Below are positions 30,643-45,597 of a DNA stretch of 46,909 nucleotides, piece by piece. The notes under the pieces are model-generated. The model was given only the letters and a program-made list of their open reading frames with translations, did no database searches and was not told the origin of the DNA. Each line of letters opens with the position of its first letter. Within the stretch, counting starts at the first letter, position 1. The translations under genes were made by a program, and so were the position numbers. This DNA comes from Rickettsiales bacterium (GTDB taxonomy: Bacteria; Pseudomonadota; Alphaproteobacteria; Rickettsiales; UBA1997), in contig CANEUK010000001.1 of the NCBI GenBank assembly GCA_947441695.1, forward strand, positions 1 through 46,909, read 5' to 3'.

Positions 30643-31017
30643 TTAGTTTGAATAAAATTGCTGATTTATAAATTTCATTGCTTCTTCTTCCGATTCTTCA
30701 ATCGCCATTTCAACCGCTTTTTTGGCAAGTTCGAGCAATTTTTCACTTTTAGATTTTAGGGCGAAACTTTCTTGAATAAGCAAAGAAATTTGCGATTGGG
30801 TTTTTGGGTCGATTAGCGGCAAAGGAATTTTTAAAAACTCATCCTTGTTAATCGCGGTAAGAATTGTTCCAGAACAGCTTTGTTTTAAGATAATTTTAAT
30901 TTTTTTACGCGACACGAGTTGCGCCCCCTGCGTTGCTGGGAACTCCAATCTCATAAGAAAACTTCGGTCGAGTTTGAAGTAACTTTGGTATATAAAATTA
31001 TTTTTTGATAAGCCCAA
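30643..31017 (-). pseudogene. C-terminal fragment of a type I restriction-modification specificity subunit (HsdS-like)
   Basis: 124 aa, compared with roughly 400 aa for an intact HsdS. It retains the end of a target-recognition domain plus the conserved helix (LKIPLPLIDPKTQSQISLLIQESFALKSKSEKLLELAKKAVEMAIE). No HsdM or HsdR is nearby. Its 5-prime end overlaps the ParA-like gene. Confidence 0.55.
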
Positions 31018-32107
31018 TTAAGCCATCCACAATTTTACTATAGGAATCACTTATGCTTTTAAATGAAATCGCATATTGTCCTTTTTCTTTTGTTATATCA
31101 ACCACCATGGTTTTTGAGTCCTTATATTTGTTGCATAGTTCTTGGGTTAGATAGACAACTGGAACACCAGCTTTCTCAGCTATTGATCTTAATTGCGAAG
31201 TAAAATCACAGCATTTTTGAATTATAAAAGGATTGGAGTTAGCGCCAAAAATATCTCTAAATTCTTCTTCTGATATTGAAAGATTCCCGCGCGAAGCATA
31301 TTGCTGAAATTTTCTTACACTAGTATTTACGTCCTCTATCCATTTTTCAGCTGATCTTGAAAAAGATGTGCCTTCTTTTACACTTCCTCCATTAAATCTT
31401 TTAGCCATTTGCACCACCAAACCCAAAAACTTTGGTTGGAAATTTACACCTTTAAAACTTTTTGTTGTTTCATAATCTCTAAGCAACCTAATCCAATTCT
31501 GAAAAATAGAGCTTAAATTATCTATTGCCTGTAAAGAGAAAAATGCTGGGGAAACTGGTGCTATAAAGTAATCACTCGTCATCATTATCATAGCATTAAT
31601 TATACTGCTAGCGCTTGGCGATGTATCAACTAGGATAAAATCGTAATTATTTTTTTGTTTTCTAAAAGCATGTTCAAATTTACCAGGTATGTCATTAGTA
31701 AATTCGTTTCGGTTTTTAATTATTCCATAAAGATCAGCTTCTATATTTGAGAGATTTATGGCTCCAGAAATTAGATCAACATAACCTTTGTTGGCATACC
31801 TTGATTTAACTCTATATATATCCTTATCAGAAGATTGAGATTTCATTTCAACATCAAGATATTCTGAAAGAGAAATATATTTTTTAACATTCTCACTCCA
31901 TTTAGAATCTTCTTCTGTTGAGTATTCAACACTTGTTGAAAGCCCATATACTGCTGCCGTAAGATTCATTTGAGGATCGGCATCTATCAGCAATACTCTA
32001 TATCCTTTATCCGCTAGAATAAAACCTAAATTATGAACTAAGGTTGTTTTTCCAACTCCGCCTTTGTGATTAAAAAAAGTTATAATTTTTCCCATATTAT
32101 CTAACAC
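30998..32107 (-). CDS. Orphan ParA/MinD-superfamily ATPase with a long C-terminal extension
   Basis: Deviant Walker A NHKGGVGKTT, LLIDADPQ and a Walker B-like ILVDTSP. At 369 aa it is about 100 aa longer than the chromosomal ParA at 43892. There is no adjacent ParB. Confidence 0.75.
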   Translation of the reverse strand: MLDNMGKIITFFNHKGGVGKTTLVHNLGFILADKGYRVLLIDADPQMNLTAAVYGLSTSVEYSTEEDSKWSENVKKYISLSEYLDVEMKSQSSDKDIYRVKSRYANKGYVDLISGAINLSNIEADLYGIIKNRNEFTNDIPGKFEHAFRKQKNNYDFILVDTSPSASSIINAMIMMTSDYFIAPVSPAFFSLQAIDNLSSIFQNWIRLLRDYETTKSFKGVNFQPKFLGLVVQMAKRFNGGSVKEGTSFSRSAEKWIEDVNTSVRKFQQYASRGNLSISEEEFRDIFGANSNPFIIQKCCDFTSQLRSIAEKAGVPVVYLTQELCNKYKDSKTMVVDITKEKGQYAISFKSISDSYSKIVDGLIGLIKK

Positions 32108-32771: not shown

Positions 32772-34313
32772 TCACAATTTATTTTCTGCGAGTTTTTCTA
32801 AATTTTTTTGCGCTTGCGACAAAATTTCTTGAAGTTTTGATTTTTCCATTTTGCGCAAATTGGCGTAAGCAAAGGTTAGACGCTGATTATTTTTAAGTTG
32901 CGCTTCATTTTTTTGTAAAAAATTCCAATAAAGCGCGTTGAAAGGGCAGGCTTTTTCACCAACCATAATTTCGGGGTCAAAGCGGCAAGATTTACAAAAA
33001 TTCGACATGCGCGAAATATATTTTCCGCTCGCCGCATAAGGCTTGCTTGCCATAATTCCGCCATCGGCGTGCAACGCCATTCCAATTGCGTTTGGAGCTT
33101 CAACCCACTCAAAAGCATCAGCATAAACTGCTAAATACCATTCATGAACTTGCTTGGGATTTATGCCAGCAATCAAGGCAAAATTTCCGCTAATCATCAG
33201 TCGTTGAATGTGGTGCGAATAAGCGTTTTCTTTGGTTTGTTTGACTACTTCGCTCAAGCAAAACATTTGGGTTTTTGCGTTCCAATAAAATTCGGGTAAA
33301 TCTTTTTTGGCGTTAAGAAAGTTGCTTTCTAAATATTGCGGCATGTTCAACCAGTAGATTCCGCGCACATATTCGCGCCAACCAAGAATTTGGCGAATAA
33401 ATCCTTCAACAGCATTTAGTGGCGCTTTGCCTGCGTGATAAGCGGTTTCCGCCATTTTGCAAATTTCAAGCGGCTCAAGCAATCCAACATTAATATAACA
33501 AGAAAGCAGCGAGTGATAAAGATAAGGCTCATTTGAAAGCATCGCATCTTGGTAATCGCCAAAATTAATCAGCAATTCGTCAATAAAATGTTTGGCTTCA
33601 ATTATTGCTTGATCGCGAGTTACAGCAAAATGAAAAGGCAATAAATCGCCAAAATTTTTTGGAAATTTTTCGGCGACTAAATCTAAAACTTCTGAAGTAA
33701 TTGCGTCTTTTTTGTGACTGATTCTTGGCGGCGATTTCATGCCAGTTTTTGGTGCTTTGCGATTTTCGATGTCGTAATTCCATTTGCCGCCAATTGGCTT
33801 ATTTGTAGCATCAAGCAAGATTTTATGTTTTTTGCGCATCTCGCGGTAAAAAAACTCTAAGCGTAATTGTTTTTTGCCTTTTGCCCAATTTCTAAACTCA
33901 ACTTGGCTACATAAAAAACGAGTGTCGGGAAAAATTTCGAAAGTGATTTTATAAATTTTTTGCCAGTGCAAAACTTTTTGCCAAACCCGATATTCTGAAG
34001 GTTCGGTTAAAGAAACTTTTTGCGGCTGATATTTCTCAATTGCTCTTTTTAGCTCTTCGTCAAACGAACCAGAATTTTTTGCGTCATCAAGTTTTACGTA
34101 ATCAACTTTGAATTTTTTATCGCGTAATTCTTGGGCGAAATGACGCATTGCTGTAAAAATAAAGGCGATTTTTTTCTTGTGATGGGCTGCGTAAGTTGCT
34201 TCTTCACTAACTTCGCACATTAAAATCACGTCATTTTCCTTATCAGTGTGCTGTAAATTAAGCAGCGAATGCGACAACTGATCGCCAAAAATAAAATGTA
34301 GATTTTCAGTCAT
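32772..34313 (-). CDS. Cryptochrome/photolyase-family protein of the FeS-containing bacterial type (FeS-BCP / (6-4) photolyase-like)
   Basis: COG3046-type sequence (HFIFGDQLS N-terminus). The C-terminal four-Cys pattern (FCLSEV ... FCKSCRF ... KACPFNALYW) is as in iron-sulfur photolyases. The start is chosen at MTENLHFIFGDQL (ATG 34313) rather than 34370. Confidence 0.8.
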   Translation of the reverse strand: MTENLHFIFGDQLSHSLLNLQHTDKENDVILMCEVSEEATYAAHHKKKIAFIFTAMRHFAQELRDKKFKVDYVKLDDAKNSGSFDEELKRAIEKYQPQKVSLTEPSEYRVWQKVLHWQKIYKITFEIFPDTRFLCSQVEFRNWAKGKKQLRLEFFYREMRKKHKILLDATNKPIGGKWNYDIENRKAPKTGMKSPPRISHKKDAITSEVLDLVAEKFPKNFGDLLPFHFAVTRDQAIIEAKHFIDELLINFGDYQDAMLSNEPYLYHSLLSCYINVGLLEPLEICKMAETAYHAGKAPLNAVEGFIRQILGWREYVRGIYWLNMPQYLESNFLNAKKDLPEFYWNAKTQMFCLSEVVKQTKENAYSHHIQRLMISGNFALIAGINPKQVHEWYLAVYADAFEWVEAPNAIGMALHADGGIMASKPYAASGKYISRMSNFCKSCRFDPEIMVGEKACPFNALYWNFLQKNEAQLKNNQRLTFAYANLRKMEKSKLQEILSQAQKNLEKLAENKL

Positions 34314-34336
34314 GTGAGAAGTTTGGATTGTTTTGT

Positions 34337-34765
34337 TTAGCTTATTTTGATCAGTGCCAGAGATATACAAACAATCATGGTAACGTTGATACGGGTTTGA
34401 AAATATTTTGCCTCGATTAAGTCTAATTGTTTGAGATGATAATCGACCGCAAGCAAAGACAAAAAGCTAAAAATTAAATTCAGAAAAAACCCAGAACTGC
34501 TAATTAAAAAAAACGAAAACCAACACAACAAAGTGATAATATTGCTGATTAAAAATAAGTTTAACTTGGGCTTTTGTTTAAAAGTTAAATATTGCCCCCA
34601 ATTAACGCCCGCCATGAAAGAAATAATTGCTAGGCCGTAAGATTTAATAATATTTTCAAAAAAAATTTCTGAAGAAAGTTGCAATTTTGCGCTAAAAAAA
34701 ATTGCTGCGACGATAAAGGGAATACATCCCAAATAAGCTAAAAAATGATTAAGATTTTTATTCAT
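34337..34765 (-). CDS. DUF3429-like small polytopic membrane protein
   Basis: 142 aa with four hydrophobic helices. The N-terminal [10 protein letters not shown] motif is typical of DUF3429, a family often found near photolyase genes. Confidence 0.6.
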
Positions 34766-34910
34766 TTTGGTTTTTATTTTTACGACATTTGTCAGAGCAA
34801 TATTTCACCTGATCCCAAACCTTCTGCCACTTTTTTCGCCAAGTAAATGGTCGATTGCATTTTATGCAAATTTTTTGCGGTAAATTTTCTTTTTTAACTT
34901 TGTTTTTCAT
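34758..34910 (-). CDS. DUF2256-like small zinc-binding protein (not in the ORF track, 50 aa)
   Basis: Hand translation gives [50 protein letters not shown]. The C..C...F.WRKKW...W..V.YCS..CR pattern matches DUF2256. The stop overlaps the DUF3429 start (ATGAATAA). Confidence 0.7.
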
Positions 34911-34949: not shown

Positions 34950-35309
34950 TTAAGCTCTATTTAAATCGCCGCGTTTCTGTTCAATAATTTTGGTTTTTTT
35001 TGGCTCGAAAAATTTTTGCAAAACCGGAATCGATTTGTGTGCGTCGCAAGAGCCGCAAACAAAAATATCAAGAGCGGCGTAATTAAATTCTGGCCAAGTG
35101 TGAATGGTAATGTGCGATTCGGCAAGAATTGCCACGCCGGTAATGCCGCAATTTTCTCCGAAAGAATGTAATTTAGTTTCAAGAACTGTCGCGCCGCAGG
35201 CTAGAGCCGATTCGCTTAAAGCTTTGAGAATGTGTTTTTTATCTTGCAAATTTTTGGCCTCAAAAAAATCGATTAAAAGGTGAGTTCCTGGAGTAAAATT
35301 TTTGCTCAT
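34950..35309 (-). CDS. speD: S-adenosylmethionine decarboxylase proenzyme, small pyruvoyl type (Bacillus/Thermotoga class)
   Basis: 119 aa. GTHLLIDFFEAKNL, the self-processing site LAESHITIHTWPE (Glu-Ser cleavage) and AALDIFVCG are present. Confidence 0.85.
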   Translation of the reverse strand: MSKNFTPGTHLLIDFFEAKNLQDKKHILKALSESALACGATVLETKLHSFGENCGITGVAILAESHITIHTWPEFNYAALDIFVCGSCDAHKSIPVLQKFFEPKKTKIIEQKRGDLNRA

Positions 35310-36385
35310 AATTTTTTTGATAGATTAAAAAATAAAATTTTCTTCCAATTGGCGTCGTCTTTTAATCGCCAAATAAAGGCGTCCAAAATGTAGTGAGTGG
35401 CTTGGGGCAAAGCAAGCAGCGGAACTAGCCAAACTAAAAATGCGTCGGATGAAATTGCGGGAATTTGAAAAATCAATTGATGTTCATGCCAAATAAAACC
35501 GTCCCACAAAGCTTCTTCTGCAAACGCCAAAAGCAAAACTAAAATTAGATAAAAAGGTAATTTTTTGTAGGTAAAAAAGTTTTTTAACCAAGGAAAAACG
35601 TAAGAATTTTTTATTTTAGATTGATTGAAAGAATAAACCCAAATCAAGGCAGAATAAGCGATTCCGTGGGCAATAATATTGCTGGCACTAAAAATTAGGT
35701 CGTTGTTGAAAAAAACAATACCAACAAACCACGAAGAGGCGGTGCTAAAAAGGAGCAGATTTTTTGGCCAGTTAAAAAATTTATTGGTGGCAAGTAAAAA
35801 AATTTCTTTCACGAAATAAGCCGCAAACACTCCAAAATAAAGGGCTTGCGCTGTATAAAAAAAGATTCCTGCGTTAAATGAAAAAAAATCTCCCTCAATA
35901 AACCAATTAAAATCTCGCGCGTGGCAATGCCAATAAATCAGCGGATAAATTGTTGCTAAATAAATTGCTGTCTGATCAAGAATTTTAAATTTTTTTGCAT
36001 CAACGCGCGCGTAAATCATCATGAATCCATATTGCTGGCGCACAAAATGAAGCACCGCGAAATAAGCAAGAACCCGCCAAAATAACAAAGCATCAATTGA
36101 ATAAAGAAAGCAGCCAGAAATCCAAGCTAACAAAGGAACCAAAGTGTAAAGCGTTGCTCTTTTATTTAATTCGTCTCGATCCAAATAAGTGCGAAAAATT
36201 GTGCTATAAACGTGTCCGGCGTCAATACCAACCACCAAAACAAACCAAATCCACAAAGGCATTTCGCTGATTGATTGAATTTGCTGATTAAAAATCAAAA
36301 CCATCGCCGTGATGAAAATTGCGGGGCCAATTATTAGCCCAAGATCAAAGCGGGGAGAAAAAATCCAAGGCTGGGTTTTGTTCAT
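35306..36385 (-). CDS. Polytopic (about 9-10 TM) membrane protein with several conserved-looking His motifs; unknown family
   Basis: 359 aa and highly hydrophobic. Motifs are DAGHVYSTIFRTY, LHFVRQQYG, WHCHARD, AHGIAYS, WHEHQ and ATHYILDAFIWR. It has ATGA-type 4-nt overlaps with both neighbours. Confidence 0.6.
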   Translation of the reverse strand: MNKTQPWIFSPRFDLGLIIGPAIFITAMVLIFNQQIQSISEMPLWIWFVLVVGIDAGHVYSTIFRTYLDRDELNKRATLYTLVPLLAWISGCFLYSIDALLFWRVLAYFAVLHFVRQQYGFMMIYARVDAKKFKILDQTAIYLATIYPLIYWHCHARDFNWFIEGDFFSFNAGIFFYTAQALYFGVFAAYFVKEIFLLATNKFFNWPKNLLLFSTASSWFVGIVFFNNDLIFSASNIIAHGIAYSALIWVYSFNQSKIKNSYVFPWLKNFFTYKKLPFYLILVLLLAFAEEALWDGFIWHEHQLIFQIPAISSDAFLVWLVPLLALPQATHYILDAFIWRLKDDANWKKILFFNLSKKL

Positions 36386-37992
36386 AAAATAAAAGATAAA
36401 ACCTGACGCGAAACTTCAACGCTGCGCGTATAAGCCTCTTCAAAAATTGAAATTCCACTCATGTCGGAATTAGCAAAAAAAATTGGCGGATGTTGTTTTA
36501 GTGCGTTTTTGCGATCTTTGCCCCAAATAAAACCCGTTGTTGGTCGAGCCATTGCATGACCCCAAATTTTGAGGTCTAAACGTTTTACCGCTCCTTTTAA
36601 TTCGGGGTGGATTGAAAATAATTCGCCAAGAAAAATTTTTTGCCATTCTTCGTAAGAGCGTGCAATTGCTTCTTTTCTGGCTTCTGCTGGTTTTAAATGA
36701 GTTAGCGGCCAGTAATAAGTAATTACGGTTTGAGTTGGATTCATTTGCGAAATTTGATGGGTTGCCACCACATATCCAAGCAATTCGCTGTTAAATACCA
36801 CATTGTCCCAACTTAAATTGGCACCAATGCCGCGAGGCATTTTGTCGAGCGTAATATTTGCCACCGCCCAAGGTGTGTAAGAAAAATTATCAGCAGAAAT
36901 TTTAATATCTTTTGAATCAATTAGGCGATTTGCAATAAAGCGTGGAGTCGCAACCAGGGCGGCTTTGGCGTTGATGCGCACCGACTGATTTTTTTCTACA
37001 TCAAAATAATCAACATCCACCGATCCGTCGCTTTGATTGGCAATTTTGTAGGCTAAAGCGCGATTGGTAATTTGGTTTTTAATTGGCTCTTCCAATTTTT
37101 TTGCAAGCCAGCCATTTCCTTCAGGCCAAGTAATTACATTATCGGAGTCAGTATTTGCCGCTTTTCCGCAACGCGCTGCAAAATAATGAATTCCGGCCCA
37201 AGCAGAAGTTTCATTTGCTTTTACGCCAAAATCGTCGCGACAACAATAATCAACGTACCACTGCAAATTAACTGAAGAAAAACCTTGTTTTTGCATCCAC
37301 GCTGTCATTGTGATTTGGTCGAGTTCTAACCATTTTTTATCTTGAGAACTTTTGTCGAGCGGAATGGCAAAAACTTTTTTGCCGTCGCGACCTTTGGCTT
37401 TTTTGTAATTTTTTATTAAAGCAAAAAATCTCTGATATTGTTCTTTCTCATTTGAATCAATTCCAACTGGCGGAATCAGGCCTTCAAACCATCTGCCATA
37501 AATAAAAAGGCGTTCGTTGGGGTCGGCGCAAATGTAAAATTCATTGTAAATTGGCAGGCCGTTTTTGTAGCCAGTAATTATTCCAAAATCTTCGAAAAGT
37601 TTTTTTACCTCAATTGATTCTTCGTTGAGAAGCGGCACATAATGCGCGCCCCAAGGATAAGCCGAGATTTCATTTTTGCCGCTTGAAGAATTGCCGCCCG
37701 TTTCTTTTTCTAAATCAAGTAGCGCAAAGTTTTTTACGCCTGATTTGAAGAAATTGTATCCCGCTCCAAGCCCCGCAATGCCGCCGCCAATAATTACAAC
37801 GTCTTTTTTTAGAAAAATTGTTGGAGCAGGAAAATCTTTGCCACGCAATTTATGACCAATTTGAGAAGAAGCGCCAAGAATTTCTCCGGGTATTTTTTTT
37901 TCAGAAAAAACTTTCTTGAAAGCGGGGGTTAAAACAAGAGCCAGAGCAGATGCGGCACTTCCTACGATAAATTTTCGCCGCGTGATTTTCAT
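36382..37992 (-). CDS. Tat-exported FAD/NAD(P)-binding oxidoreductase (amine-oxidase / desaturase-like fold)
   Basis: Twin-arginine leader MKITRRKFIVGSAASALALVL. Dinucleotide-binding fold VVIIGGGIAGLGAG...LLDLE. 536 aa. Confidence 0.7.
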   Translation of the reverse strand: MKITRRKFIVGSAASALALVLTPAFKKVFSEKKIPGEILGASSQIGHKLRGKDFPAPTIFLKKDVVIIGGGIAGLGAGYNFFKSGVKNFALLDLEKETGGNSSSGKNEISAYPWGAHYVPLLNEESIEVKKLFEDFGIITGYKNGLPIYNEFYICADPNERLFIYGRWFEGLIPPVGIDSNEKEQYQRFFALIKNYKKAKGRDGKKVFAIPLDKSSQDKKWLELDQITMTAWMQKQGFSSVNLQWYVDYCCRDDFGVKANETSAWAGIHYFAARCGKAANTDSDNVITWPEGNGWLAKKLEEPIKNQITNRALAYKIANQSDGSVDVDYFDVEKNQSVRINAKAALVATPRFIANRLIDSKDIKISADNFSYTPWAVANITLDKMPRGIGANLSWDNVVFNSELLGYVVATHQISQMNPTQTVITYYWPLTHLKPAEARKEAIARSYEEWQKIFLGELFSIHPELKGAVKRLDLKIWGHAMARPTTGFIWGKDRKNALKQHPPIFFANSDMSGISIFEEAYTRSVEVSRQVLSFIL

Positions 37993-37999
37993 TTAGAAA

Positions 38000-38106
38000 C
38001 TGTTAGCTAATTAATTTTATTTTAGATTTTGACATATTTTGAAAAATTTTACTAAAAAATAAGCCAAAATAGGGTGAAATATGGAATAAAATTAATTAGC
38101 TAACAG
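38000..38106. repeat. Perfect 22-bp inverted repeat with a 63-nt spacer, filling the only sizeable gap inside the gene array
   Basis: CTGTTAGCTAATTAATTTTATT at 38000..38021 is the exact reverse complement of 38085..38106. Confidence 0.9.
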
Positions 38107-38110
38107 CGTT

Positions 38111-39613
38111 CTAATAAATCAAATATTTTGACCATTCGTCGTCAAAATATCTGACTAAAACTTGGTCATCGAGACGTTGAATTTTGGTGCTGATTTGCGA
38201 CATATCATGAGCAAAATGAAACATTTGGTTACTGGTTTCAAGGCTGATATAGCGAAGTTTTGCGGGATATTTTTGCGGCGCAATATAGGGCTTCATTGAA
38301 GCAATAATAAAACCCCATTCGCCAAAAGATGGCACAAAAGTGTGGTAAGGCGCGGTATAAAATCCAGCGGCGTTTAGCGTGTTGTTGACGCACCAAAATG
38401 ATTTTCTGGCAACCAGCGGAGAAGTGCTTTGAACCACTACCAGCGAGTCGCGCGACATGATGTTTTTAAGCTGCTTGAAAAATGAAACGGAATAAAGTTT
38501 GCCCACCGAAAAATTGGAAGGATCGGGAACGTCAATAATTAAAGCGTCAAAAGTAGCGTTTTGAGTTTCTTTCAACCATAAAAAAGCGTCGCGATTAATG
38601 ACGGTAAGTTTTGGCGAGAGCAAAGAATTTTGATTGAGATTGGTGAGAATTTGATTTGAGGAAAAGAGTTTTGTCATTGCGGGGTCAAGATCAACCAGTG
38701 TTACTTTTTCAACCGACGGATATTTTAAAATTTCGCGCAAAGCTAAACCATCGCCGCCGCCAATAATTAAAATATTTTTTGGCGTTTTAAGTGCTGACAT
38801 CACGGGGTGAACCAGCGATTCGTGGTAGCGATATTCGTCAAGCGAGCTGAATTGTAAATTGGAGTTTAAAAAAAGCCGTAAATCGTCTTTTTCTTTGGTG
38901 ATTGTTATTCTTTGGTAGGGCGTGGATTCAGAAAAAATAATGTTTCCTAAATAAGCGGAGCTTTCAGAAATGCTCATTATTTTTTCGCTGTAGCAAAATC
39001 CCAACATTAAAAAAATCAGCGAGATAATCGCGAAAGCTTGGTTGAAATAGGCGTGTTTGAAATCTTTTTTGAGAGCGTAAATTAGCCAAATTGCAACCAG
39101 AACATTCAAGACACCAAACAAGAAACTAGATTTTACTAGCCCCAAATGCGGCACTAAAACTAGCGGAAAAATAATTGAGGCAAAAAGCGCGCCGATGTAA
39201 TCGAAGGTAAAAACTTTCGAGACTAAATCTTTGAATTCAAAACGATCTTTTAAAATTCTAAGTAGCAGCGGAATTTCAATTCCAACCAAAATACCAATGA
39301 CGCCAACTACAAAATAGAGCATCAAGCGAAAAGAATAGACATGTTCAAACAGCAAAAAAAGCAGCGCCGCAGAAGATCCGCCAATCAGACCGACTAAAAT
39401 TTCAACCCGAATAAATAGGTTCAAAAGATTGCGTTTAACATAACGCGAAAACCACGAACCAATGCCCATCGCAAAAAGGTAGCAGCCGATGATGGTAGAA
39501 AATTGGGTAATTGAGTCACCCAAAAGATAACTGGCGAGAGTTCCAGCAATTAGCTCATAGATTAGCCCGCAAGTTGCGATTACAAAAACCGAGATGAATA
39601 GAAGTAGAGCCAT
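38111..39613 (-). CDS. Membrane-anchored spermidine/spermine-synthase-like aminopropyltransferase
   Basis: The N-terminal ~200 aa have about 7 TM helices. The C-terminal SpeE-like domain shows SPYQRITIT, YHESLVHP, ILIIGGGDGLALREILK, VTLVDLDPAM and LIIDVPDPSN. Confidence 0.8.
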   Translation of the reverse strand: MALLLFISVFVIATCGLIYELIAGTLASYLLGDSITQFSTIIGCYLFAMGIGSWFSRYVKRNLLNLFIRVEILVGLIGGSSAALLFLLFEHVYSFRLMLYFVVGVIGILVGIEIPLLLRILKDRFEFKDLVSKVFTFDYIGALFASIIFPLVLVPHLGLVKSSFLFGVLNVLVAIWLIYALKKDFKHAYFNQAFAIISLIFLMLGFCYSEKIMSISESSAYLGNIIFSESTPYQRITITKEKDDLRLFLNSNLQFSSLDEYRYHESLVHPVMSALKTPKNILIIGGGDGLALREILKYPSVEKVTLVDLDPAMTKLFSSNQILTNLNQNSLLSPKLTVINRDAFLWLKETQNATFDALIIDVPDPSNFSVGKLYSVSFFKQLKNIMSRDSLVVVQSTSPLVARKSFWCVNNTLNAAGFYTAPYHTFVPSFGEWGFIIASMKPYIAPQKYPAKLRYISLETSNQMFHFAHDMSQISTKIQRLDDQVLVRYFDDEWSKYLIY

Positions 39614-39614
39614 T

Positions 39615-39842
39615 TTAGCCGTGAATTGCCGAAGAAATGATTAGCGCAATGCCAACCACCACGCCGCACATAAAAACCCCAAGTGCCACATTTTGTTTTT
39701 CGACTAATTCTTTCCAGATGCTGACTTTTGGCGTGAGTATATCAAACAAGACGAAGCTGATGATAAAAATTAACAGACCAATAAAAGTGTAAAGCAAAGA
39801 TCCTACAACATATTTCATTTCGATTAGTTCCATGATTCCCAT
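39615..39842 (-). CDS. DUF350 (YjfL-like) small membrane protein
   Basis: 75 aa with two or three TM helices and the central motif ELVEKQNVALGV typical of DUF350. A GGAG RBS sits 6 nt upstream. The stop is 1 nt from the SpeE-like start. Confidence 0.7.
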   Translation of the reverse strand: MGIMELIEMKYVVGSLLYTFIGLLIFIISFVLFDILTPKVSIWKELVEKQNVALGVFMCGVVVGIALIISSAIHG

Positions 39843-39850
39843 ATTTACTC

Positions 39851-39988
39851 CTATTTGTGATATTGTTTGGCAGATTTAGATGCTGTTTGAGTGCCACTCA
39901 AAAAGCCTAGTAAAGTGTAATGATTGTAGGTGGCTGCACTTGTCAAAAGAGCAATGACAACGCAGTAAATACTAAATTTTATAGGCAT
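39851..39988 (-). CDS. Small (45 aa) ORF with an N-terminal hydrophobic helix; not in the ORF track
   Basis: MPIKFSIYCVVIALLTSAATYNHYTLLGFLSGTQTASKSAKQYHK. It is preceded by GAGGAA 7 nt upstream of the ATG. It exactly fills the gap between the DUF4178 and DUF350 genes (21-nt and 8-nt spacers). Confidence 0.4.
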   Translation of the reverse strand: MPIKFSIYCVVIALLTSAATYNHYTLLGFLSGTQTASKSAKQYHK

Positions 39989-40009
39989 TAATTATTCCTC
40001 ATTATTTTG

Positions 40010-41311
40010 CTATTCGACAAGATTACTATTTTCCCAACGTTTTGTTTCAAAGCTTTTTGTTTTAAGAAAAAGAATTATCGGATAGGCAAAAATTAAAACT
40101 AACGCTATCCAAAAATTTCCCCAATAAGGCACGTCACGCTTGATTGTAGAATAAAGTTGTAAAATTCTTGAGCCTCCTAATTCATAATCAAACAAAAGGT
40201 GGTATTTTCCTTTTGGAATCAAGTTGGTAATACTTGATTTAGTTCGTCCACCCTCGCTCCAATCGCCATCACTGTCGCGTCCGTGATAATATTCTATTGC
40301 CTGCGAGACATCAAAAGTTTCGTGGGTTTGCGAATTGACTAAAGAAAAATTTAACTCGACCCAACTATTATCCACCGAAACGTTGCTGGTAATTTTGACA
40401 TTGCCATCTTTTGGTAGGTCAATATCAGCAATTTTAATTGTGGTATTTTTGGCTATTCTTGAAGGGTCAAGATAAAAACCGATATTTTTCACTTCGGCAT
40501 TATCAAGCGAACAATTTATCAAAATCTGTAGCAGCAAAAGAAACGCAAAAGCAATTAAGGCAACTCGAGTTGATACTTTGAATTTTTGTTCGTGGGGCGA
40601 AGGTTGGTTGCAAGCAACACTAATTGGGTAAGGAATTGATTCTAACTTGAAGGCTTCTTGCACTTCTTTTGCAGAAATATACTGGCATTGCGAGACGTTT
40701 ATTTCGTCTTTCAAAACTTCGCATGAAAGCATAAAAGGTGGCGCGATGTAATCAAAAACCTGCGCGCTGTCACCTTTTTTTATGCGCCAGTAAAACTCAC
40801 CTTTAACATATTCAACTACCGCAATACCAGTGAGAAATGGTTGGTAGTTTTCACCATCAAAATCAATGTTAGAGCCTTTATTTAAACCAGAAATATCACG
40901 CTGCAAAACTTTAGCAAAACTCCAATGTCCCAAAGATTGAATCAAAAATCGAAAGCCGTGGTAAGGATTGTAAAGCAAATATTCATCCCAATCATAAGCA
41001 TCTCCATCATTTTTGCGCACAAATCCAATTGCCTCCCAATTAACGCCAAAAAGTACGCCGCGCGCGCCAATTTCAATAGTGGTGGGGATGATTTTTTTAT
41101 TGGCTTTTTCGATAATTTGGTAATTTTCGTTTTTTACATCAATCACCGAAGAGCAACTGTTGCAGATCGCGGTAATTGCATGACCAAGAGACTTGATTAA
41201 AATATTACTGCCGCAAGCAGGACAATTAAAAATTTTTGGATTTTGGTTGGCAGAATTTTCGATCACCAGCCCTCCAAAATACGAAAGTTTTGGCAGTGTA
41301 AATTTTCCCAT
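40010..41311 (-). CDS. Zinc-ribbon + DUF4178 protein with a TM helix, an extra-cytoplasmic beta-rich domain and a C-terminal TM helix
   Basis: CPACGS...CNSC ribbon. DUF4178-like core (GVNWEAIGFVRKNDGDAYDWDEYLLYNPYHGFRFL). TM helices are VALIAFAFLLLLQILI and FWIALVLIFAYPIILFL. Confidence 0.65.
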   Translation of the reverse strand: MGKFTLPKLSYFGGLVIENSANQNPKIFNCPACGSNILIKSLGHAITAICNSCSSVIDVKNENYQIIEKANKKIIPTTIEIGARGVLFGVNWEAIGFVRKNDGDAYDWDEYLLYNPYHGFRFLIQSLGHWSFAKVLQRDISGLNKGSNIDFDGENYQPFLTGIAVVEYVKGEFYWRIKKGDSAQVFDYIAPPFMLSCEVLKDEINVSQCQYISAKEVQEAFKLESIPYPISVACNQPSPHEQKFKVSTRVALIAFAFLLLLQILINCSLDNAEVKNIGFYLDPSRIAKNTTIKIADIDLPKDGNVKITSNVSVDNSWVELNFSLVNSQTHETFDVSQAIEYYHGRDSDGDWSEGGRTKSSITNLIPKGKYHLLFDYELGGSRILQLYSTIKRDVPYWGNFWIALVLIFAYPIILFLKTKSFETKRWENSNLVE

Positions 41312-41943
41312 TCAACATATCGCCCAAGATAAACGCGGCGCTGATAATTTTCGATTTCAATTGAGGCGAATTCTCCCGATTTTCCCACCAAATCAAGCGA
41401 TTTAGTTTTGCGGCCAATTGGTGCAACAAAAGGCAATTCACCTTCGCAGCCAACGCAAGTTGCTTCTTTGATGTCGACAATTTTTAAAAGGTTTTTGGAT
41501 AATTCTAAAAACGATCCAACTTCAAGAGAATTAAGATTTTTTGCTTCGAGTTTTTTGTTTTCGGCAATTTCAAAGCTCACTGCGTAAAAGCCTTGGGCTT
41601 CCGCCAGCCAACCTTTGCGACCATCTTCGCTGACAATAAACCATTCATTCCAATTGCCATCATCCCAAGATAATTTCATGCGACCGATAATGCCAAAACC
41701 CACGCCGTCAAACTTGCCTTGGGTGCCAATTTGAAAAGGACTCATGTCTTGTGGCAGCGCGGCCATAGTGCCAATTGATTCAACATCCAAATCATGACGC
41801 ACCACCATCGAGCTACAATATTTACAAATTGCATAAACCGACAGGCTCGACATAAAAGCAATGTTGGCGCCACATGAAGGGCAGTTGCAACTCTTCATTT
41901 GGTTATTTGATTTTGGATAGTAATTCAGATTTTTTGGCGTCAA
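41263..41943 (-). CDS. Zinc-ribbon + DUF4178 protein (soluble paralog)
   Basis: CPSCGA...CKYC ribbon. DUF4178-like core (GFGIIGRMKLSWDDGNWNEWFIVSEDGRKGWLAEAQG). An alternative start at Met16 (41898) would remove the overlap with the SPFH gene. Confidence 0.65.
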   Translation of the reverse strand: MTPKNLNYYPKSNNQMKSCNCPSCGANIAFMSSLSVYAICKYCSSMVVRHDLDVESIGTMAALPQDMSPFQIGTQGKFDGVGFGIIGRMKLSWDDGNWNEWFIVSEDGRKGWLAEAQGFYAVSFEIAENKKLEAKNLNSLEVGSFLELSKNLLKIVDIKEATCVGCEGELPFVAPIGRKTKSLDLVGKSGEFASIEIENYQRRVYLGRYVEWENLHCQNFRILEGW

Positions 41944-42889
41944 ATTCTTGCTTAGTCAAAATGCCTTTAGCGTGAAGTTCGCCTAATTTTTCTAACATTT
42001 TGATTGGATCTTCTTGCGTGGTGGAAAAATTATTTTGCTCCATATTTTGCATCATATTTTGTCCTAAAACTGCGCCAGCACCAATTGCAACACCTGCTCC
42101 CGCCGCACCATTTTGATTGGCAGCAGCAATTGAAATAGAATCGGCACTTTGAAATTGGGTGTATTTTTGAAAGTCACCGACAATTCGCATTGAGCTTGAT
42201 TTATCTAAATGTTTTTCAAGTTCTTCGGGTAGCGACAAGTTTTGCACATAAAAACTACTAAGTTCCAAACCGTAATTTAAGAATGCTGGCGCAATTGCCT
42301 CTTGAAGTTTTTGAGAAAAAGCGCCTTGGTTTGCAGCCATGTCAATAAAGGCTACGTCGCTCTTGCTTAAAAATTCTGAAATCGATGTTAAAATTATCGA
42401 CTTCAATTGCCCTTCAATATTTTGCACCGAATATTTTTCAGCGGTGCCGCAAAGTTTAGTCCAGAAAGTTTCAATATTTTTAATGGCATAAGAATAGCTA
42501 CCAAAAGACCGAATGCGAAGCGCGCCAAACTCTTTATCGCGAATTGTAATTGGTTGCGTGGTGCCCCATTTTTGATCTAACTGCTCGCGAGTACTTAAAA
42601 AATAAATGTCAGATTTGAACGGAGATTCAAAAAATTTATCCCAATTTTTTAGCGAAGTTAAAATTGGCAAAGTATTGGTTTGAAGCGTGTAAGTTCCAGG
42701 TAAAAATTGATCAGCAAATTTTCCTTCGTTGAAAAAAACCGCCATTTGAGTTGGTCGCACAATCAGCTGCGAACCATTTTGAATTTCCATGTCATACATT
42801 GGGTAGCGATAAGCTAGCACGCCACTTTCAGACTCGGTCCATTGAATGACATCAACAAATTGCTTAGAGATAAAATTTTTTAGGCTCAT
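41903..42889 (-). CDS. SPFH/Band-7 superfamily protein (COG4260-like) with a C-terminal SHOCT domain
   Basis: 328 aa. The N-terminal two-thirds are SPFH-like (FVDVIQWTE...VAFIDMAANQ...). A Gly/Ala linker follows. The terminal DPIKMLEKLGELHAKGILTKQEFDAKKSELLSKI matches the SHOCT bihelical motif. Confidence 0.7.
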   Translation of the reverse strand: MSLKNFISKQFVDVIQWTESESGVLAYRYPMYDMEIQNGSQLIVRPTQMAVFFNEGKFADQFLPGTYTLQTNTLPILTSLKNWDKFFESPFKSDIYFLSTREQLDQKWGTTQPITIRDKEFGALRIRSFGSYSYAIKNIETFWTKLCGTAEKYSVQNIEGQLKSIILTSISEFLSKSDVAFIDMAANQGAFSQKLQEAIAPAFLNYGLELSSFYVQNLSLPEELEKHLDKSSSMRIVGDFQKYTQFQSADSISIAAANQNGAAGAGVAIGAGAVLGQNMMQNMEQNNFSTTQEDPIKMLEKLGELHAKGILTKQEFDAKKSELLSKIK

Positions 42890-42917
42890 GCGAATTTTAA
42901 AAAAGTTGGAGTAAGAT

Positions 42918-43097
42918 TATACTGAATCAAATCCGACTTGTGGTCGAACTTGGGTAATTTCGAATTACTACTCGCCAACGACTAAATACTCACAAGGTTA
43001 TTTTCTTTTAAAGTGAGTTTTGCTTGGTGTCGCAAGCATCCGCAACAGATTTTTGGTTTTTACTAAAAATCAAATCTTCAATTGAGTTCTAGTATAA
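42918..43097. repeat. Left arm of a ~180-bp imperfect inverted repeat
   Basis: By hand alignment, its reverse complement matches 43630..43810 at roughly 70-75 percent of positions. Long identical blocks include AATACTCACAA.GTTATTTTCTTTT.AAGTGAG, ATCCGCAA.AGATTTTTGGTTTTTA and TTCTTCAATTGAGTT. Confidence 0.85.
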
Positions 43098-43189
43098 AAG
43101 GAGTTTTTCTTTTGTTCGAATTAAAAATGCTAGAAAAATATGATGTCATGTTAGGCCTAGCACCTGCAATAGATTTTATTTTTTTATGA

Positions 43190-43221
43190 AAATCGATTTC
43201 TTTAATTGAGTTTTGGTATAT
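43190..43221. repeat. Third, partial copy of the repeat core (same orientation as the left arm)
   Basis: AAAATCGATTTCTTTAATTGAGTTTTGGTATA compared with the reverse complement of 43630..43661 (AAAATCGACTTCTTCAATTGAGTTTTGGTATA). Confidence 0.8.
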
Positions 43222-43517
43222 TTTGCTGAAGCCATTATTTTGAAAGTCTAACAAGAATTCGATTTGTCGCTTTAAAAGAAAATCTTTGCTTTGAAGTTTT
43301 GGCTGTTAATAAAGACAGGCTCTAGTTCGAGAAATTAATATTTTAGAGTAAGAATTAGGTTTACTGATTGCAGACGATTTTTTTGACGAATGATTTTATA
43401 TCAAATTTAGAAGGTAGAAAGTGTCTTAAATTTAGGGGTATTACCCTCTTGTTTTTTTGTGGTCAAAAAGCCAAGAAGATTATCGCGCTAATTAACTGAT
43501 AAATTTGAATTTAAAAA

Positions 43518-43533
43518 GTTTCACATGAAACAA
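43518..43533. promoter_or_regulatory. parS-like centromere site
   Basis: AGTTTCACATGAAACA matches the parS consensus TGTTTCACGTGAAACA at 14 of 16 positions. It lies ~360 bp upstream of parA. Confidence 0.6.
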
Positions 43534-43629
43534 AGTGTTTTATAGCAAAAAAAACACTAGTTAATCGAAAAATTTACTTGAATTAAAAAATTGCAAAATC
43601 TTACATTGATAGGGTTTTGGAACCTTAGA

Positions 43630-43810
43630 TATACCAAAACTCAATTGAAGAAGTCGATTTTTATAAAAACCAAAAATCTTTTGCGGATTCTCGAAAAAAA
43701 GAAGTGCAGCTCACTTGAAAAGAAAATAACTTTGTGAGTATTCATTCTTTGACAAGGTAGTAATTCAAAGATTGCCAAATTCGAGATAAGTCGAATTTGA
43801 TTAGTTATAT
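43630..43810. repeat. Right arm of the ~180-bp imperfect inverted repeat
   Basis: See 42918..43097. It begins with the dispersed core CCAAAACTCAATTGAAGAAGTCGATTTT (43634..43661). Confidence 0.85.
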
Positions 43811-43891
43811 ACCAAAGTCTTTTGGACTTCGATATATTTTAATTTTTTACGCCGAATTAGCGGCGCCCCCCCAATTAAAATTATAAATTTA

Positions 43892-44677
43892 ATGCCAATT
43901 CACCACAAAAGAGCTAAAATTTATTCTGTTGTTAATCAAAAAGGCGGTGTGGGAAAAACTACTACCGCAATCAACGTAGCAGCTGCTTTTGCTTCAATGA
44001 AAAAAAAAGTTTTACTAATTGATTCTGATCCCCAAGGCAATGCCAGCACTGGATTTGGAATAGCTCAATCTCAAAGGCAAAAAACGATTTACGAACTTTT
44101 AATCGGCGAATGTCATATTTTAGACACAATAATTCCAACCAAAACTCCAAATCTAAAAATCATCACTTCTACAGTTGATTTATCGGCTTGTGAAATTGAA
44201 TTGGCCAACATTAGCAAAAGAGAGTTTTTGTTGCGCCAAGCTATCAAATCGATAATTTTTGATTACAATTATATCATAATAGATTGTCCTCCTTCACTTG
44301 GTCTTTTGACCATAAACGTCTTAACCGCTTCTGACTCGGTTTTGATTCCGATGCAATGTGAGTTTTTTTCGCTCGAGGGTCTTAGTCATTTACTCACAAC
44401 TCTAGATTTGATAAAGGAAAACCTAAATCACGAGTTAAAAATAGGTGGAATAATTCTAACCATGCGCGACATGCGCAATAAACTAACTCAACAAGTCGAG
44501 ATTGACGTGCGCAGTTTTCTAAAAGAAAAAGTTTTTAAAAACTCTATTCCAAGAAATGTTAGATTGTCCGAGGCTCCTTCTTATGGCATTCCGGGAATAT
44601 TTTATGATTCAAAATGCTTGGGTTCAAAGTCTTATATGAAGCTTGCTAAAGAAATTTTACAAAAAGAATCCAAATAA
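43892..44677 (+). CDS. parA: Chromosome partitioning ATPase ParA/Soj
   Basis: NQKGGVGKTTT, LLIDSDPQGNAS and IIIDCPPSLG. A parB gene directly follows. Confidence 0.93.
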   Translation: MPIHHKRAKIYSVVNQKGGVGKTTTAINVAAAFASMKKKVLLIDSDPQGNASTGFGIAQSQRQKTIYELLIGECHILDTIIPTKTPNLKIITSTVDLSACEIELANISKREFLLRQAIKSIIFDYNYIIIDCPPSLGLLTINVLTASDSVLIPMQCEFFSLEGLSHLLTTLDLIKENLNHELKIGGIILTMRDMRNKLTQQVEIDVRSFLKEKVFKNSIPRNVRLSEAPSYGIPGIFYDSKCLGSKSYMKLAKEILQKESK

Positions 44678-44688
44678 TTTAAAGAAAT

Positions 44689-45597
44689 ATGACAGAGAAT
44701 AATCAGGAGCAAAAATTGGGCAGAGGTCTTTTGGCTCTAATTGGAGACAGTAAGTCAAAAAAAGAAACATTGCGAGATTTAGACCAAAATTTTAAAAAAA
44801 TTGAGTCAATTAATCTCGATCAAATTATTGCTGGGGTTTATCAACCAAGAAAAAATTTTGATAAAACTGAATTACAAGAATTAGCTGATTCTATCAAAGA
44901 AAATGGACTAATTCAGCCGATAATTTTGCGAAAAGTTTCTGACGAAGATCGTTATGAAATAATTGCTGGAGAGCGTAGATTTCGTGCCGCAAAATTGGCC
45001 GAACTAAAAGAAATTCCTTCAATTGTAAAAAAAATTAATAATCACGAAGCCCTAGAGTTGGCGATTATTGAAAATATCCAAAGAACCGACTTATCTTTAA
45101 TTGAAGAAGCTAGCGGTTACCAACAATTGATGGTGGAATTTTCTTATAAACAAGATCAGGTTGCTAAAAAAATTGGTAAAAGTCGTAGCCATGTTGCTAA
45201 TCTTTTGCGATTACTTAGTTTGCCAAAAAATGTGCAAAAATTTCTTGATAAAAAACAAATTTCAATGGGTCATGCTCGAGCCATAATTAACTCTCGCGAT
45301 CCAGAAAAGCTGGCAAAACAAATTATCGAAAATTCTTTAACTGTTCGCGATGTCGAAGATTTGGTAAGAGATGAAAAGGTTGAAAAAATTAAAAATAATC
45401 TAACTTTTGTTAAAACCGAATCAAAAATAAAACTTATTGACCCAGAATACTTAGCGTCTTTAGAAAAAAAACTTTCTGAATTAAGCCAGATGGAATCAAA
45501 AATTTCGTATAACTCTTTTAAAAATAGCGGACAAATAAAGATTAAATTTGATGATTTTAAAAAAATTAAAACACTGCTCGAAAAGCTAGAGAAATAA
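44689..45597 (+). CDS. parB: Chromosome partitioning protein ParB/Spo0J
   Basis: GLIQPIILR, IIAGERRFRAAKLA and an HTH region (QDQVAKKIGKSRSHVANLLRLL). Confidence 0.93.
   Translation: MTENNQEQKLGRGLLALIGDSKSKKETLRDLDQNFKKIESINLDQIIAGVYQPRKNFDKTELQELADSIKENGLIQPIILRKVSDEDRYEIIAGERRFRAAKLAELKEIPSIVKKINNHEALELAIIENIQRTDLSLIEEASGYQQLMVEFSYKQDQVAKKIGKSRSHVANLLRLLSLPKNVQKFLDKKQISMGHARAIINSRDPEKLAKQIIENSLTVRDVEDLVRDEKVEKIKNNLTFVKTESKIKLIDPEYLASLEKKLSELSQMESKISYNSFKNSGQIKIKFDDFKKIKTLLEKLEK

Follow-up and report, generated by a model that had tools for sequence, protein, structure and literature searches.

Ravi et al. (2024; mSystems, PMC11237479) have described operons that encode a CesT/Tir-PspA component, a spermine-synthase-like protein with seven transmembrane (TM) helices, DUF350, a lipoprotein and DUF4178, together with a mycobacterial variant. 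In a sentence or two and without assigning a function, the same study mentions a Band-7/SHOCT variant containing an S-adenosylmethionine (AdoMet) decarboxylase as well as a polyamine oxidase, and it proposes a monitoring role for such systems, directed at polyamines or at other substrates undergoing aminopropylation. We analyzed a 46,909-nt stretch of a freshwater metagenome contig (hereafter the window; Rickettsiales bacterium, assembly GCA_947441695.1, contig CANEUK010000001.1), whose nine-gene array at positions 34,950 to 42,889 is this Band-7/SHOCT variant; all coordinates refer to the whole stretch. Common to both are a band-7 protein with a hydrophobic (2TM) segment and SHOCT, DUF350/YjfL, the 7-TM spermine-synthase-like protein, DUF4178, AdoMet decarboxylase and polyamine oxidase, and also the absence of PspA and CesT. 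The paper differs in naming neither a 10-TM protein of 359 amino acids (aa), here called M359, nor a 45-aa peptide ending in His-Lys. These two families and a transferase predicted to face outward were undescribed in the literature that we found. The window thus represents a further instance of the variant, from a freshwater Rickettsiales-like alphaproteobacterial lineage of metagenome-assembled genomes (MAGs), and the operon type is uncharacterised and already in the literature. An initial interpretation of the bare DNA, below called the sequence-only reading, was largely right at the level of the system but had presented the combination as a candidate uncharacterised system, whereas a computational description had been published; its proposal that an SPFH protein may take the place of PspA agrees exactly with the statement of Ravi et al. 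(2024). With moderate confidence we regard the array as a system that, in connection with envelope or membrane stress, aminopropylates an acceptor other than putrescine at the membrane, the product then being processed oxidatively in the periplasm.

The core of DUF350, 7-TM spermine-synthase-like protein and DUF4178 is also found in the SO_3765-type operon of Shewanella oneidensis and in mycobacterial operons (CCP45394.1, DUF2617; CCP45395.1, DUF4247). In these operons SPFH-SHOCT is replaced by CesT/DUF2170-PspA (Shewanella) or DUF4247/DUF2617 (mycobacteria), and neither SpeD nor the oxidase nor M359 is listed. The Shewanella operon contains a small exported protein (lipoprotein Ctha_1186 with a low-complexity region) directly upstream of DUF350, where the His-Lys peptide lies in our array. 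Literature on Rv2597-Rv2601 and on DUF350 yielded nothing further of use. The yjfIJKLMC operon of Escherichia coli likewise brings together DUF350 (YjfL), a small exported lipoprotein, a polyamine-type enzyme and a membrane-remodelling protein, the lipoprotein being encoded between DUF350 and the ATP-grasp ligase. It differs in that the enzyme is a glutathionylspermidine-synthase-like ATP-grasp ligase and the scaffold the PspA-family protein YjfJ, whereas SpeD, oxidase and DUF4178 are absent. In Bacillus subtilis the cytosolic SPFH protein YdjI/SamI is recruited to the membrane by the membrane proteins YdjG/H (SamG/H), of which YdjG carries two zinc ribbons (Ravi et al. 2024, PMC11237479). The likeness of pspA-ydjGHI (samGHI) to the array would lie in a membrane-stress complex in which a zinc-ribbon membrane protein and its partner recruit an SPFH protein to the membrane. 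Unlike the array, the Bacillus operon contains PspA and a TPM-domain protein and no polyamine enzymes, and the globular domain of YdjG is YpeB/NTF2-like, not DUF4178. By analogy, YdjG/H-YdjI may be the best model for the SPFH/DUF4178 part. The literature bears out both the E. coli parallel (DUF350, PspA-family protein, glutathionylspermidine-synthase-like enzyme) and the B. subtilis parallel, which the sequence-only reading had drawn.

Two further bodies of work concern the enzymes. In Pseudomonas aeruginosa the PmrAB-controlled genes speD2-speE2-PA4775 (PA4773-PA4775) provide surface spermidine/norspermidine that protects the outer membrane. As in our array, a dedicated second SpeD/SpeE pair is accompanied by a third gene of no known role, and the polyamine serves the envelope; the spermidine dehydrogenase SpdH of the same species is a structural neighbour of the array oxidase. 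The Pseudomonas genes differ in that they are controlled by PmrAB and adjoin pmrAB, and no scaffold genes have been described with them. Li and co-workers reportedly linked AdoMet decarboxylase, membrane fusions resembling spermidine synthase and DUF350 without finding spermidine, and are said to have proposed that the enzyme aminopropylates something other than putrescine. Ravi et al. 2024 cite this work. According to a 2025 paper from the Michael laboratory, which also cites Li et al. 2019, bacterial fusions of membrane domains with aminopropyltransferases have been shown experimentally not to make spermidine or spermine. The clusters of Li et al. 2019 reportedly share with ours a class-1b SpeD, a membrane-anchored spermidine-synthase-like protein and DUF350.

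The nine open reading frames (ORFs) of the array lie on the minus strand and run in one direction from 42889 to 34950. According to the ORF list of the window, they are separated by overlaps or gaps of at most 21 nt and by a single gap of 118 nt; the oxidase/M359 and the M359/SpeD junctions are 4-nt overlaps. The positions and spacing given in the sequence-only reading were reproduced, with refinements at the 118-nt gap (see below) and at the start of the first DUF4178 gene. The latter most probably begins at ATG 41898 (211 aa, as in the gene call) and not at TTG 41943, which gives the longest ORF; it therefore starts 4 nt after the SPFH gene, without an overlap. All families named in that reading (SPFH/SHOCT, two DUF4178 proteins, DUF350, a SpeE-like protein, a flavoprotein and SpeD) were recovered by Pfam and NCBIfam profile matches.

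To follow the array through other genomes, M359 was chosen as bait, being the least annotated gene. One genome per species was scanned, the best 80 of 228 M359 relatives were taken, and the proteins of the window were compared with these loci by tblastn. Sufficient flanking DNA for an assessment was available at 59 loci, a sample that is anchored on M359 and biased towards the closest relatives. All eight detectable genes occurred in order at 31 of the 59 loci. Another 11 contained all genes but SpeD, and three stood apart only by the lack of the SPFH gene, one of these three still having SpeD. Both halves of the array, scaffold genes and enzyme genes, were thus present in the same order in 45/59 assessable species genomes, which settles whether they ever co-occur; DUF350 was found in all 45. 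The SPFH gene was present, and first in order, at 42 of the 59 loci. Labrys okinawensis and a 3.3-Mb MAG showed the identical nine-gene order, including a gene call of 45/46 aa, between unrelated flanks. Carriers span Alpha-, Beta- and Gammaproteobacteria, Bdellovibrionota, Verrucomicrobia and Myxococcales, the groups and genera encountered being Rickettsiales, Labrys, Mesorhizobium, Asticcacaulis, Acetobacteraceae, Burkholderiales, Gallionellales, Thiobacillus, Methyloglobulus, Bdellovibrionota, Verrucomicrobia and Myxococcales. Such colinearity, seen in dozens of genomes belonging to several phyla, goes far beyond what chance would produce, and the array is a real conserved unit.

Some loci contained only parts of the array. 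In Methylococcaceae and Methyloglobulus (L005/L024, 8370-11110; L013, 7725-10456) only the pair of Tat (twin-arginine translocation) oxidase and M359 was present, and the His-Lys peptide was absent. The oxidase and M359 form a separable second module. A gammaproteobacterial variant (L030, 5970-6632; L033) has neither the SPFH gene nor an adjacent SpeD; it possesses an additional 220-aa gene without a Pfam match between DUF350 and the transferase.

The transferase gene (38111..39613, minus strand; 500 aa) encodes seven hydrophobic helices followed by a complete aminopropyltransferase domain. Besides the match to Pfam Spermine_synth, residues 3-497 fitted NCBIfam NF002956 (PRK03612 polyamine aminopropyltransferase) with 650 bits (cut-off 472), while the score with TIGR00417 (speE) was 131 bits, below the cut-off of 250. 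In 54 homologs from several phyla, 171 of the 500 positions were at least 95% conserved. Every motif for binding of decarboxylated AdoMet (dcAdoMet) and for catalysis is kept, namely the Gln, D-E-x-x-Y-H-E, GGG(D/E)G, the ribose-binding Asp and D-x-x-D-P, represented here by Q234, D259-E265, GGGDG 285-289, D310, D342, D361 and D364 (all conserved to at least 95%). With the 7-helix domain and all these motifs retained, the proposed anchoring of the enzyme in the membrane was upheld. Residues E20, D33, E71, E113, R119 and D138 are conserved within the membrane, and the conservation of this domain, as judged from the alignment, is far above what a membrane anchor needs. In the PDB the best relatives were 7xif, 1uir (from Thermus) and the thermospermine synthase 6bq2, of which the latter two take amines larger than putrescine.

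The membrane topology was deduced from the distribution of Lys and Arg in the 54 homologs. Loops 2, 4 and 6 contained on average 2.0, 4.3 and 2.7 of these residues, the N-terminus and loops 1, 3 and 5 only 0.0, 0.0, 1.0 and 1.0, and the 15 residues past helix 7 had a net charge of -1.8. By the positive-inside rule, this bias predicts that loops 2, 4 and 6 lie inside and that the catalytic domain is periplasmic, on the same side as predicted for the Tat oxidase, the peptide and the acidic loop of the second DUF4178 protein. We do not count the outward topology as a finding, because it is at odds with the cytoplasmic origin of dcAdoMet.

The gene at the other end of the array (34950..35309, minus strand; 119 aa) encodes a cytoplasmic class 1b pyruvoyl AdoMet decarboxylase of the SpeD/SpeH type. 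It matched Pfam AdoMet_dc (1.2e-32) and scored 118 bits with TIGR03330 (cut-off 75.65). The protein could be aligned over its full length to the AdoMet decarboxylase of T. maritima (1tlu) and possesses the motifs ESH(I/L)TIHTWPE and F-x-CG (here ESHITIHTWPE and FVCG). E64, S65, H66, H70 and C85, which include the Glu-Ser self-processing site, the His and the Cys, were invariant in 45 homologs. Retention of these residues lends support to the notion of the sequence-only reading that the array may encode its own dcAdoMet supply. Neofunctionalised SpeD homologs decarboxylating arginine or ornithine exist (PMC10407285); the family score and the adjacent aminopropyltransferase speak for AdoMet as the putative substrate here.

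The oxidase (36382..37992, minus strand; 536 aa) matched only NAD_binding_8 in Pfam, its homologs match PF01593 Amino_oxidase. Its N-terminus (MKITRRKFIVGSAASALALV) begins with MKITRRKF and exhibits the twin-arginine motif TRRKF followed by a hydrophobic stretch; R5 and R6 were at least 90% conserved in 31 sequences, and G69, G71 and G74 of the GxGxxG site for flavin adenine dinucleotide (FAD) were invariant. An AlphaFold2 (AF2) model with a predicted local distance difference test (pLDDT) score of 85.7 gave as top Foldseek matches the monoamine oxidases MAO-A/B, putrescine oxidase and P. aeruginosa SpdH (E 1e-21 to 1e-23, TM-score ~0.6). The conserved signal and the two-domain amine-oxidase fold agree with the earlier call of a Tat-exported flavoprotein, and the protein is predicted to be a periplasmic flavin amine oxidase or dehydrogenase exported by the Tat pathway.

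Its neighbour M359 (35306..36385, minus strand; 359 aa) belongs to a family of more than 3,700 homologs (1,756 clusters at 50% identity), 26 members of which matched no Pfam or NCBIfam model even at E values up to 10. The charge pattern fits ten TM helices with both termini inside. Thirteen invariant His, Asp, Glu, Asn, Arg and Gln residues (D55, H58, H113, R116, Q117, H153, E194, N236, H240, E290, E291, H331 and D335) lie inside the ten predicted helices. An AF2 model (pLDDT 70) found no fold match in the PDB (best E 1.3), and hhalign disclosed no relationship to the 7-TM domain of the transferase or to DUF350 and no internal repeat. Two long M359 "fusions", to Peptidase_M1 and to LptD, were not used, as they look like merged gene calls. 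In Chthonomonas (Armatimonadota) a glutathionylspermidine-synthase-like gene precedes a GyrI-like ligand-binding gene with which M359 overlaps, and in Verrucomicrobia SpeD alone comes after M359 and no transferase lies within 10 kb (L076, 8367-11074; L074, 9061-10643; L082, 5066-6541). These neighbours therefore tie M359 independently to amine chemistry. The protein might transport a cationic amine or dcAdoMet, or else serve as a redox or anchor partner of the oxidase; transport fits the contexts without an oxidase better.

Between the second DUF4178 gene and DUF350 lies the 45-aa ORF (39851..39988, minus strand), which public records name only "hypothetical protein". A profile of this ORF was built and run over the loci. 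All 56 loci possessing the DUF4178-DUF350 junction contained one peptide ORF at that junction and none elsewhere in the locus, and a search near the loci with oxidase and M359 only found no His-Lys peptide. The C-terminus was His-Lys in 50/50 distinct sequences, mostly as Tyr-His-Lys (YHK here), compared with 0.3% of all ORFs in the same DNA. On average 1.0 Lys/Arg precedes a hydrophobic core of about 15 residues. At one aligned column, 49 of the 50 sequences obey the -3/-1 rule for signal peptidase; 43 have Ala at -1. The ORF is thus predicted to start with a Sec-type signal peptide cleaved by signal peptidase I after Ala19, and its product would therefore be a periplasmic peptide of about 26 residues. 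This predicted mature peptide has a conserved N-Y-x-G-Y start and an invariant HK-COOH end. The sequence-only reading had included the ORF as a hydrophobic one; that it is a conserved gene was substantiated, whereas its nature as a probable precursor of a secreted peptide had been missed. The adjoining DUF350 (YjfL-family) gene (39615..39842, minus strand; 75 aa) encodes two hydrophobic helices around a loop bearing Lys/Arg, half of the Pfam model being matched (3.3e-13). The transferase thus has two obligatory partners, the His-Lys peptide and DUF350.

The three genes at the head of the array encode the putative scaffold. The SPFH protein (41903..42889, minus strand; 328 aa) matched Pfam Band_7_1 (4.4e-76, 256 bits) and, at its C-terminus, SHOCT (8.5e-09). 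It has a conserved Ala/Gly-rich hydrophobic segment at about aa 249-279, and 89 positions were at least 95% conserved across 44 homologs; we predict a scaffold on the cytoplasmic face of the membrane. The DUF4178 proteins scored 45 and 57 bits with the Pfam model, and a search by sequence found no solved relative of DUF4178. The first one (41263..41898, minus strand; 1.5e-11) is soluble and has four zinc-ribbon Cys residues (C6, C9, C25 and C28) that were invariant in 49 homologs. In the second one (40010..41311, minus strand; 433 aa; 3.7e-15) the zinc-ribbon matches were weak and C30, C33, C50 and C53 invariant. Its N-terminal cytoplasmic part of about 245 aa is followed by a TM helix (246-267), an acidic loop of 129 aa, another TM helix (397-415) and a short tail of basic character. 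The loop, with on average 8.6 Lys and Arg versus 16.9 Asp and Glu in 46 homologs, is predicted to be periplasmic. A Pfam scan detected no PspA among the array genes or the other ORFs of the window of at least 150 aa. The array may work like a Psp-associated system but is no phage-shock (Psp) system, because there is no PspA/IM30 protein at the locus.

Taken as an envelope module, the array would be a horizontally spread nine-gene variant, of the Band-7/SHOCT type, of operons that combine DUF350 with a membrane aminopropyltransferase and in other bacteria contain PspA in its place. SpeD, an intact pyruvoyl enzyme by its sequence, would produce dcAdoMet in the cytoplasm. The 7-TM transferase, with its intact active site and conserved acid-lined membrane domain, would then aminopropylate an amine at the membrane, and a non-putrescine acceptor is suggested by the literature and by the nearest solved relatives, which take bulky amines. 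The sequence-only reading had thought of a polyamine or an aminopropylated lipid or envelope molecule formed at the membrane; such chemistry, as opposed to that of a free polyamine, is plausible. The cationic product may arrive on the periplasmic side, alongside the His-Lys peptide and DUF350. There the Tat-exported oxidase, translationally coupled to M359, would oxidise or cleave it for turnover or maturation, the nature of its substrate and the part played by M359 being presumptive. On the cytoplasmic face, by analogy with YdjG/H-YdjI, the two zinc-ribbon DUF4178 proteins may recruit the SPFH-SHOCT protein, and together they might organise or gate the complex upon membrane or envelope stress. 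We favour this module because of the colinear genes, the 4-nt overlaps, the invariant catalytic residues, the Tat motif, the SpdH-like fold and the amine-related gene neighbours of M359, and also because of the variant of Ravi et al. 2024, the no-spermidine statement of the Michael laboratory and the recruitment of YdjI by zinc-ribbon and membrane partners.

Several points weigh against it. If the catalytic domain is periplasmic, as the charge bias predicts, dcAdoMet would have to cross the membrane, for which we know of no precedent. Eleven loci possess the full upstream set without an adjacent SpeD, and the co-occurrence figures come from an M359-anchored sample (best 80 of 228) that favours relatives. 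The score of the transferase with the NCBIfam model "fused MFS/spermidine synthase" (MFS, major facilitator superfamily) was 36 bits, below the cut-off of 40. In the literature we found no experimental work on the Band-7/SHOCT variant, and the proteins tested by Li et al. 2019 may be of another type than the PRK03612 7-TM one seen here.

An ordinary polyamine operon strikes us as rather unlikely. SpeD and SpeE would then make free spermidine, norspermidine or thermospermine, exported to coat the surface; the oxidase would supply 1,3-diaminopropane or recycle the product, and the scaffold genes would be accessory. The aminopropyltransferase motifs are all invariant, including the distal Asp of D-x-x-D-P that binds the second amine, the oxidase fold matches putrescine oxidase and SpdH, and there is a resemblance to the surface spermidine/norspermidine genes speD2-speE2-PA4775 of P. 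aeruginosa. However, bacterial membrane-aminopropyltransferase fusions are reported to be uninvolved in spermidine or spermine synthesis, and free polyamines leave unexplained the near-invariant 7-TM domain, the obligatory peptide and the fixed order of DUF350, DUF4178 and SPFH across phyla. The peptide itself might be the acceptor, which we think improbable: the C-terminal Lys of the secreted peptide of about 26 aa would be aminopropylated once or repeatedly, in the manner of hypusine or silaffins, and then processed by the amine oxidase. The peptide gene was present in 56/56 loci with DUF4178, DUF350 and transferase and in none of the loci with oxidase and M359 only, HK-COOH is invariant compared with 0.3% of background ORFs, and sister operons place a small exported lipoprotein at the same position by DUF350. 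Signal peptide, Tat oxidase and the topology predicted for the transferase all indicate a periplasmic location. All this support is positional, though; the conserved distal Asp, D364, is a better match for a cationic diamine than for a carboxylate-bearing residue, and a role of the peptide as regulator or structural subunit is an alternative. Also counting against this route, no periplasmic AdoMet-dependent enzyme is known to us. In its full form, to which we give the same small credence, the transferase would either be fed dcAdoMet through its own acid-lined 7-TM domain in the periplasm or modify the peptide before export, the C-terminal Lys would be the acceptor, and oxidase and M359 would mature or recycle the polyamine-tailed peptide. 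If true, neither peptide polyamination in bacteria nor an extracytoplasmic transfer of an AdoMet-derived group would have an earlier example, and the purpose of the "polyamine-independent" AdoMet decarboxylases would be explained.

The partial loci bear on whether two independent modules, a membrane-stress scaffold (SPFH, DUF4178, DUF350) and a set of polyamine enzymes, merely travel together. Oxidase and M359 occur alone in methanotrophs, M359 is found alone or with SpeD/GspS-like genes elsewhere, and sister operons possess the first half without oxidase, M359 and SpeD. Against this stand the fixed order and the tight spacing with overlaps in 45/59 loci from distant lineages with unrelated flanks; moreover, DUF350 and the peptide always accompany the transferase, and the dividing line therefore does not run between scaffolds and enzymes. 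We judge independent modules to be very improbable. Hardly any credence can be given to an SPFH-based anti-phage defence or toxin system, which the patchy distribution, the apparent horizontal transfer and a G+C content of 0.38-0.40, slightly above the surroundings, might suggest: PADLOC gave only methyltransferase-fold and FAD-motif noise, nuclease, ATPase and abortive-infection domains are absent from the array, and the array sits among housekeeping genes.

The 118-nt gap between the transferase and oxidase genes (37993..38110) turned out to be a recent, lineage-specific insertion and no conserved component of the system. It contains a 116-nt palindromic element with 51-nt arms, 78% complementary, and 21-nt perfect termini, which folds as RNA to -32.7 kcal/mol (z = -8.9) and occurs in a single copy within the window. 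The three closest relatives (L006, L007 and L008) are without it, and there the oxidase start follows the transferase stop at a distance of 2 nt. Accordingly, the gap, which the sequence-only reading had treated as part of the array design, was also rejected as a regulatory element, the insertion being missing from close relatives. The element resembles a small insertion of the MITE (miniature inverted-repeat transposable element) or RPE (Rickettsia palindromic element) type.

Upstream, a 1-kb gene-free stretch (42890-43891) between the array and a divergent parA consists of nested inverted repeats (42944-43096 versus 43629-43784, 79-85% complementary), with a third copy of a 62-nt unit at 43159-43220. 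This region may represent the decayed remains of a mobile element or else a structured stretch with a regulatory or partition role, and the promoter of the array should lie in it. A scan for promoters and terminators was uninformative, the sites being no more frequent than in shuffled sequence, and an Rfam search of the window gave no match. The parA-parB pair occupies 43892-45597, and an orphan second ParA-like ATPase gene (30998-32107) lies about 2.8 kb downstream of the array; at the related locus L001 a TrbL conjugation gene is situated beyond parB. On the minus strand, 39 nt past the array, 32772-34910 encodes DUF2256 (50 aa), DUF3429 (142 aa) and a DPRP photolyase-related protein (513 aa). 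These genes were rejected as members, since tblastn of the loci found them conserved with the array in no other locus. Otherwise the window is an ordinary chromosomal stretch (FtsY, RlmN, BipA, PanB, AsmA, MurG, ClpPX, HemE, KdtA, PurH, ParAB), and its nearest relatives (91% identity) are lake MAGs assigned to Rickettsiales or to "uncultured Alphaproteobacteria". The G+C content of the array (0.38-0.40 at 36001-42000) exceeds that of most of the window (0.29-0.37). The raised value fits horizontal acquisition; strong constraint at the protein level could be an alternative cause.

Thousands of bacteria keep an AdoMet decarboxylase and a membrane aminopropyltransferase that reportedly do not make spermidine, and what these membrane enzymes aminopropylate is a question that polyamine biology has yet to answer. 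Beside membrane-repair scaffolds, either PspA or SPFH, the same genes are met repeatedly, mycobacteria included. Analysis of the window adds no new architecture to this picture and defines the minimal conserved set. With the peptide, M359 and the predicted outward-facing transferase, the question of the acceptor becomes directly testable, and culturable carriers exist in Labrys okinawensis, Asticcacaulis benevestitus and Mesorhizobium.

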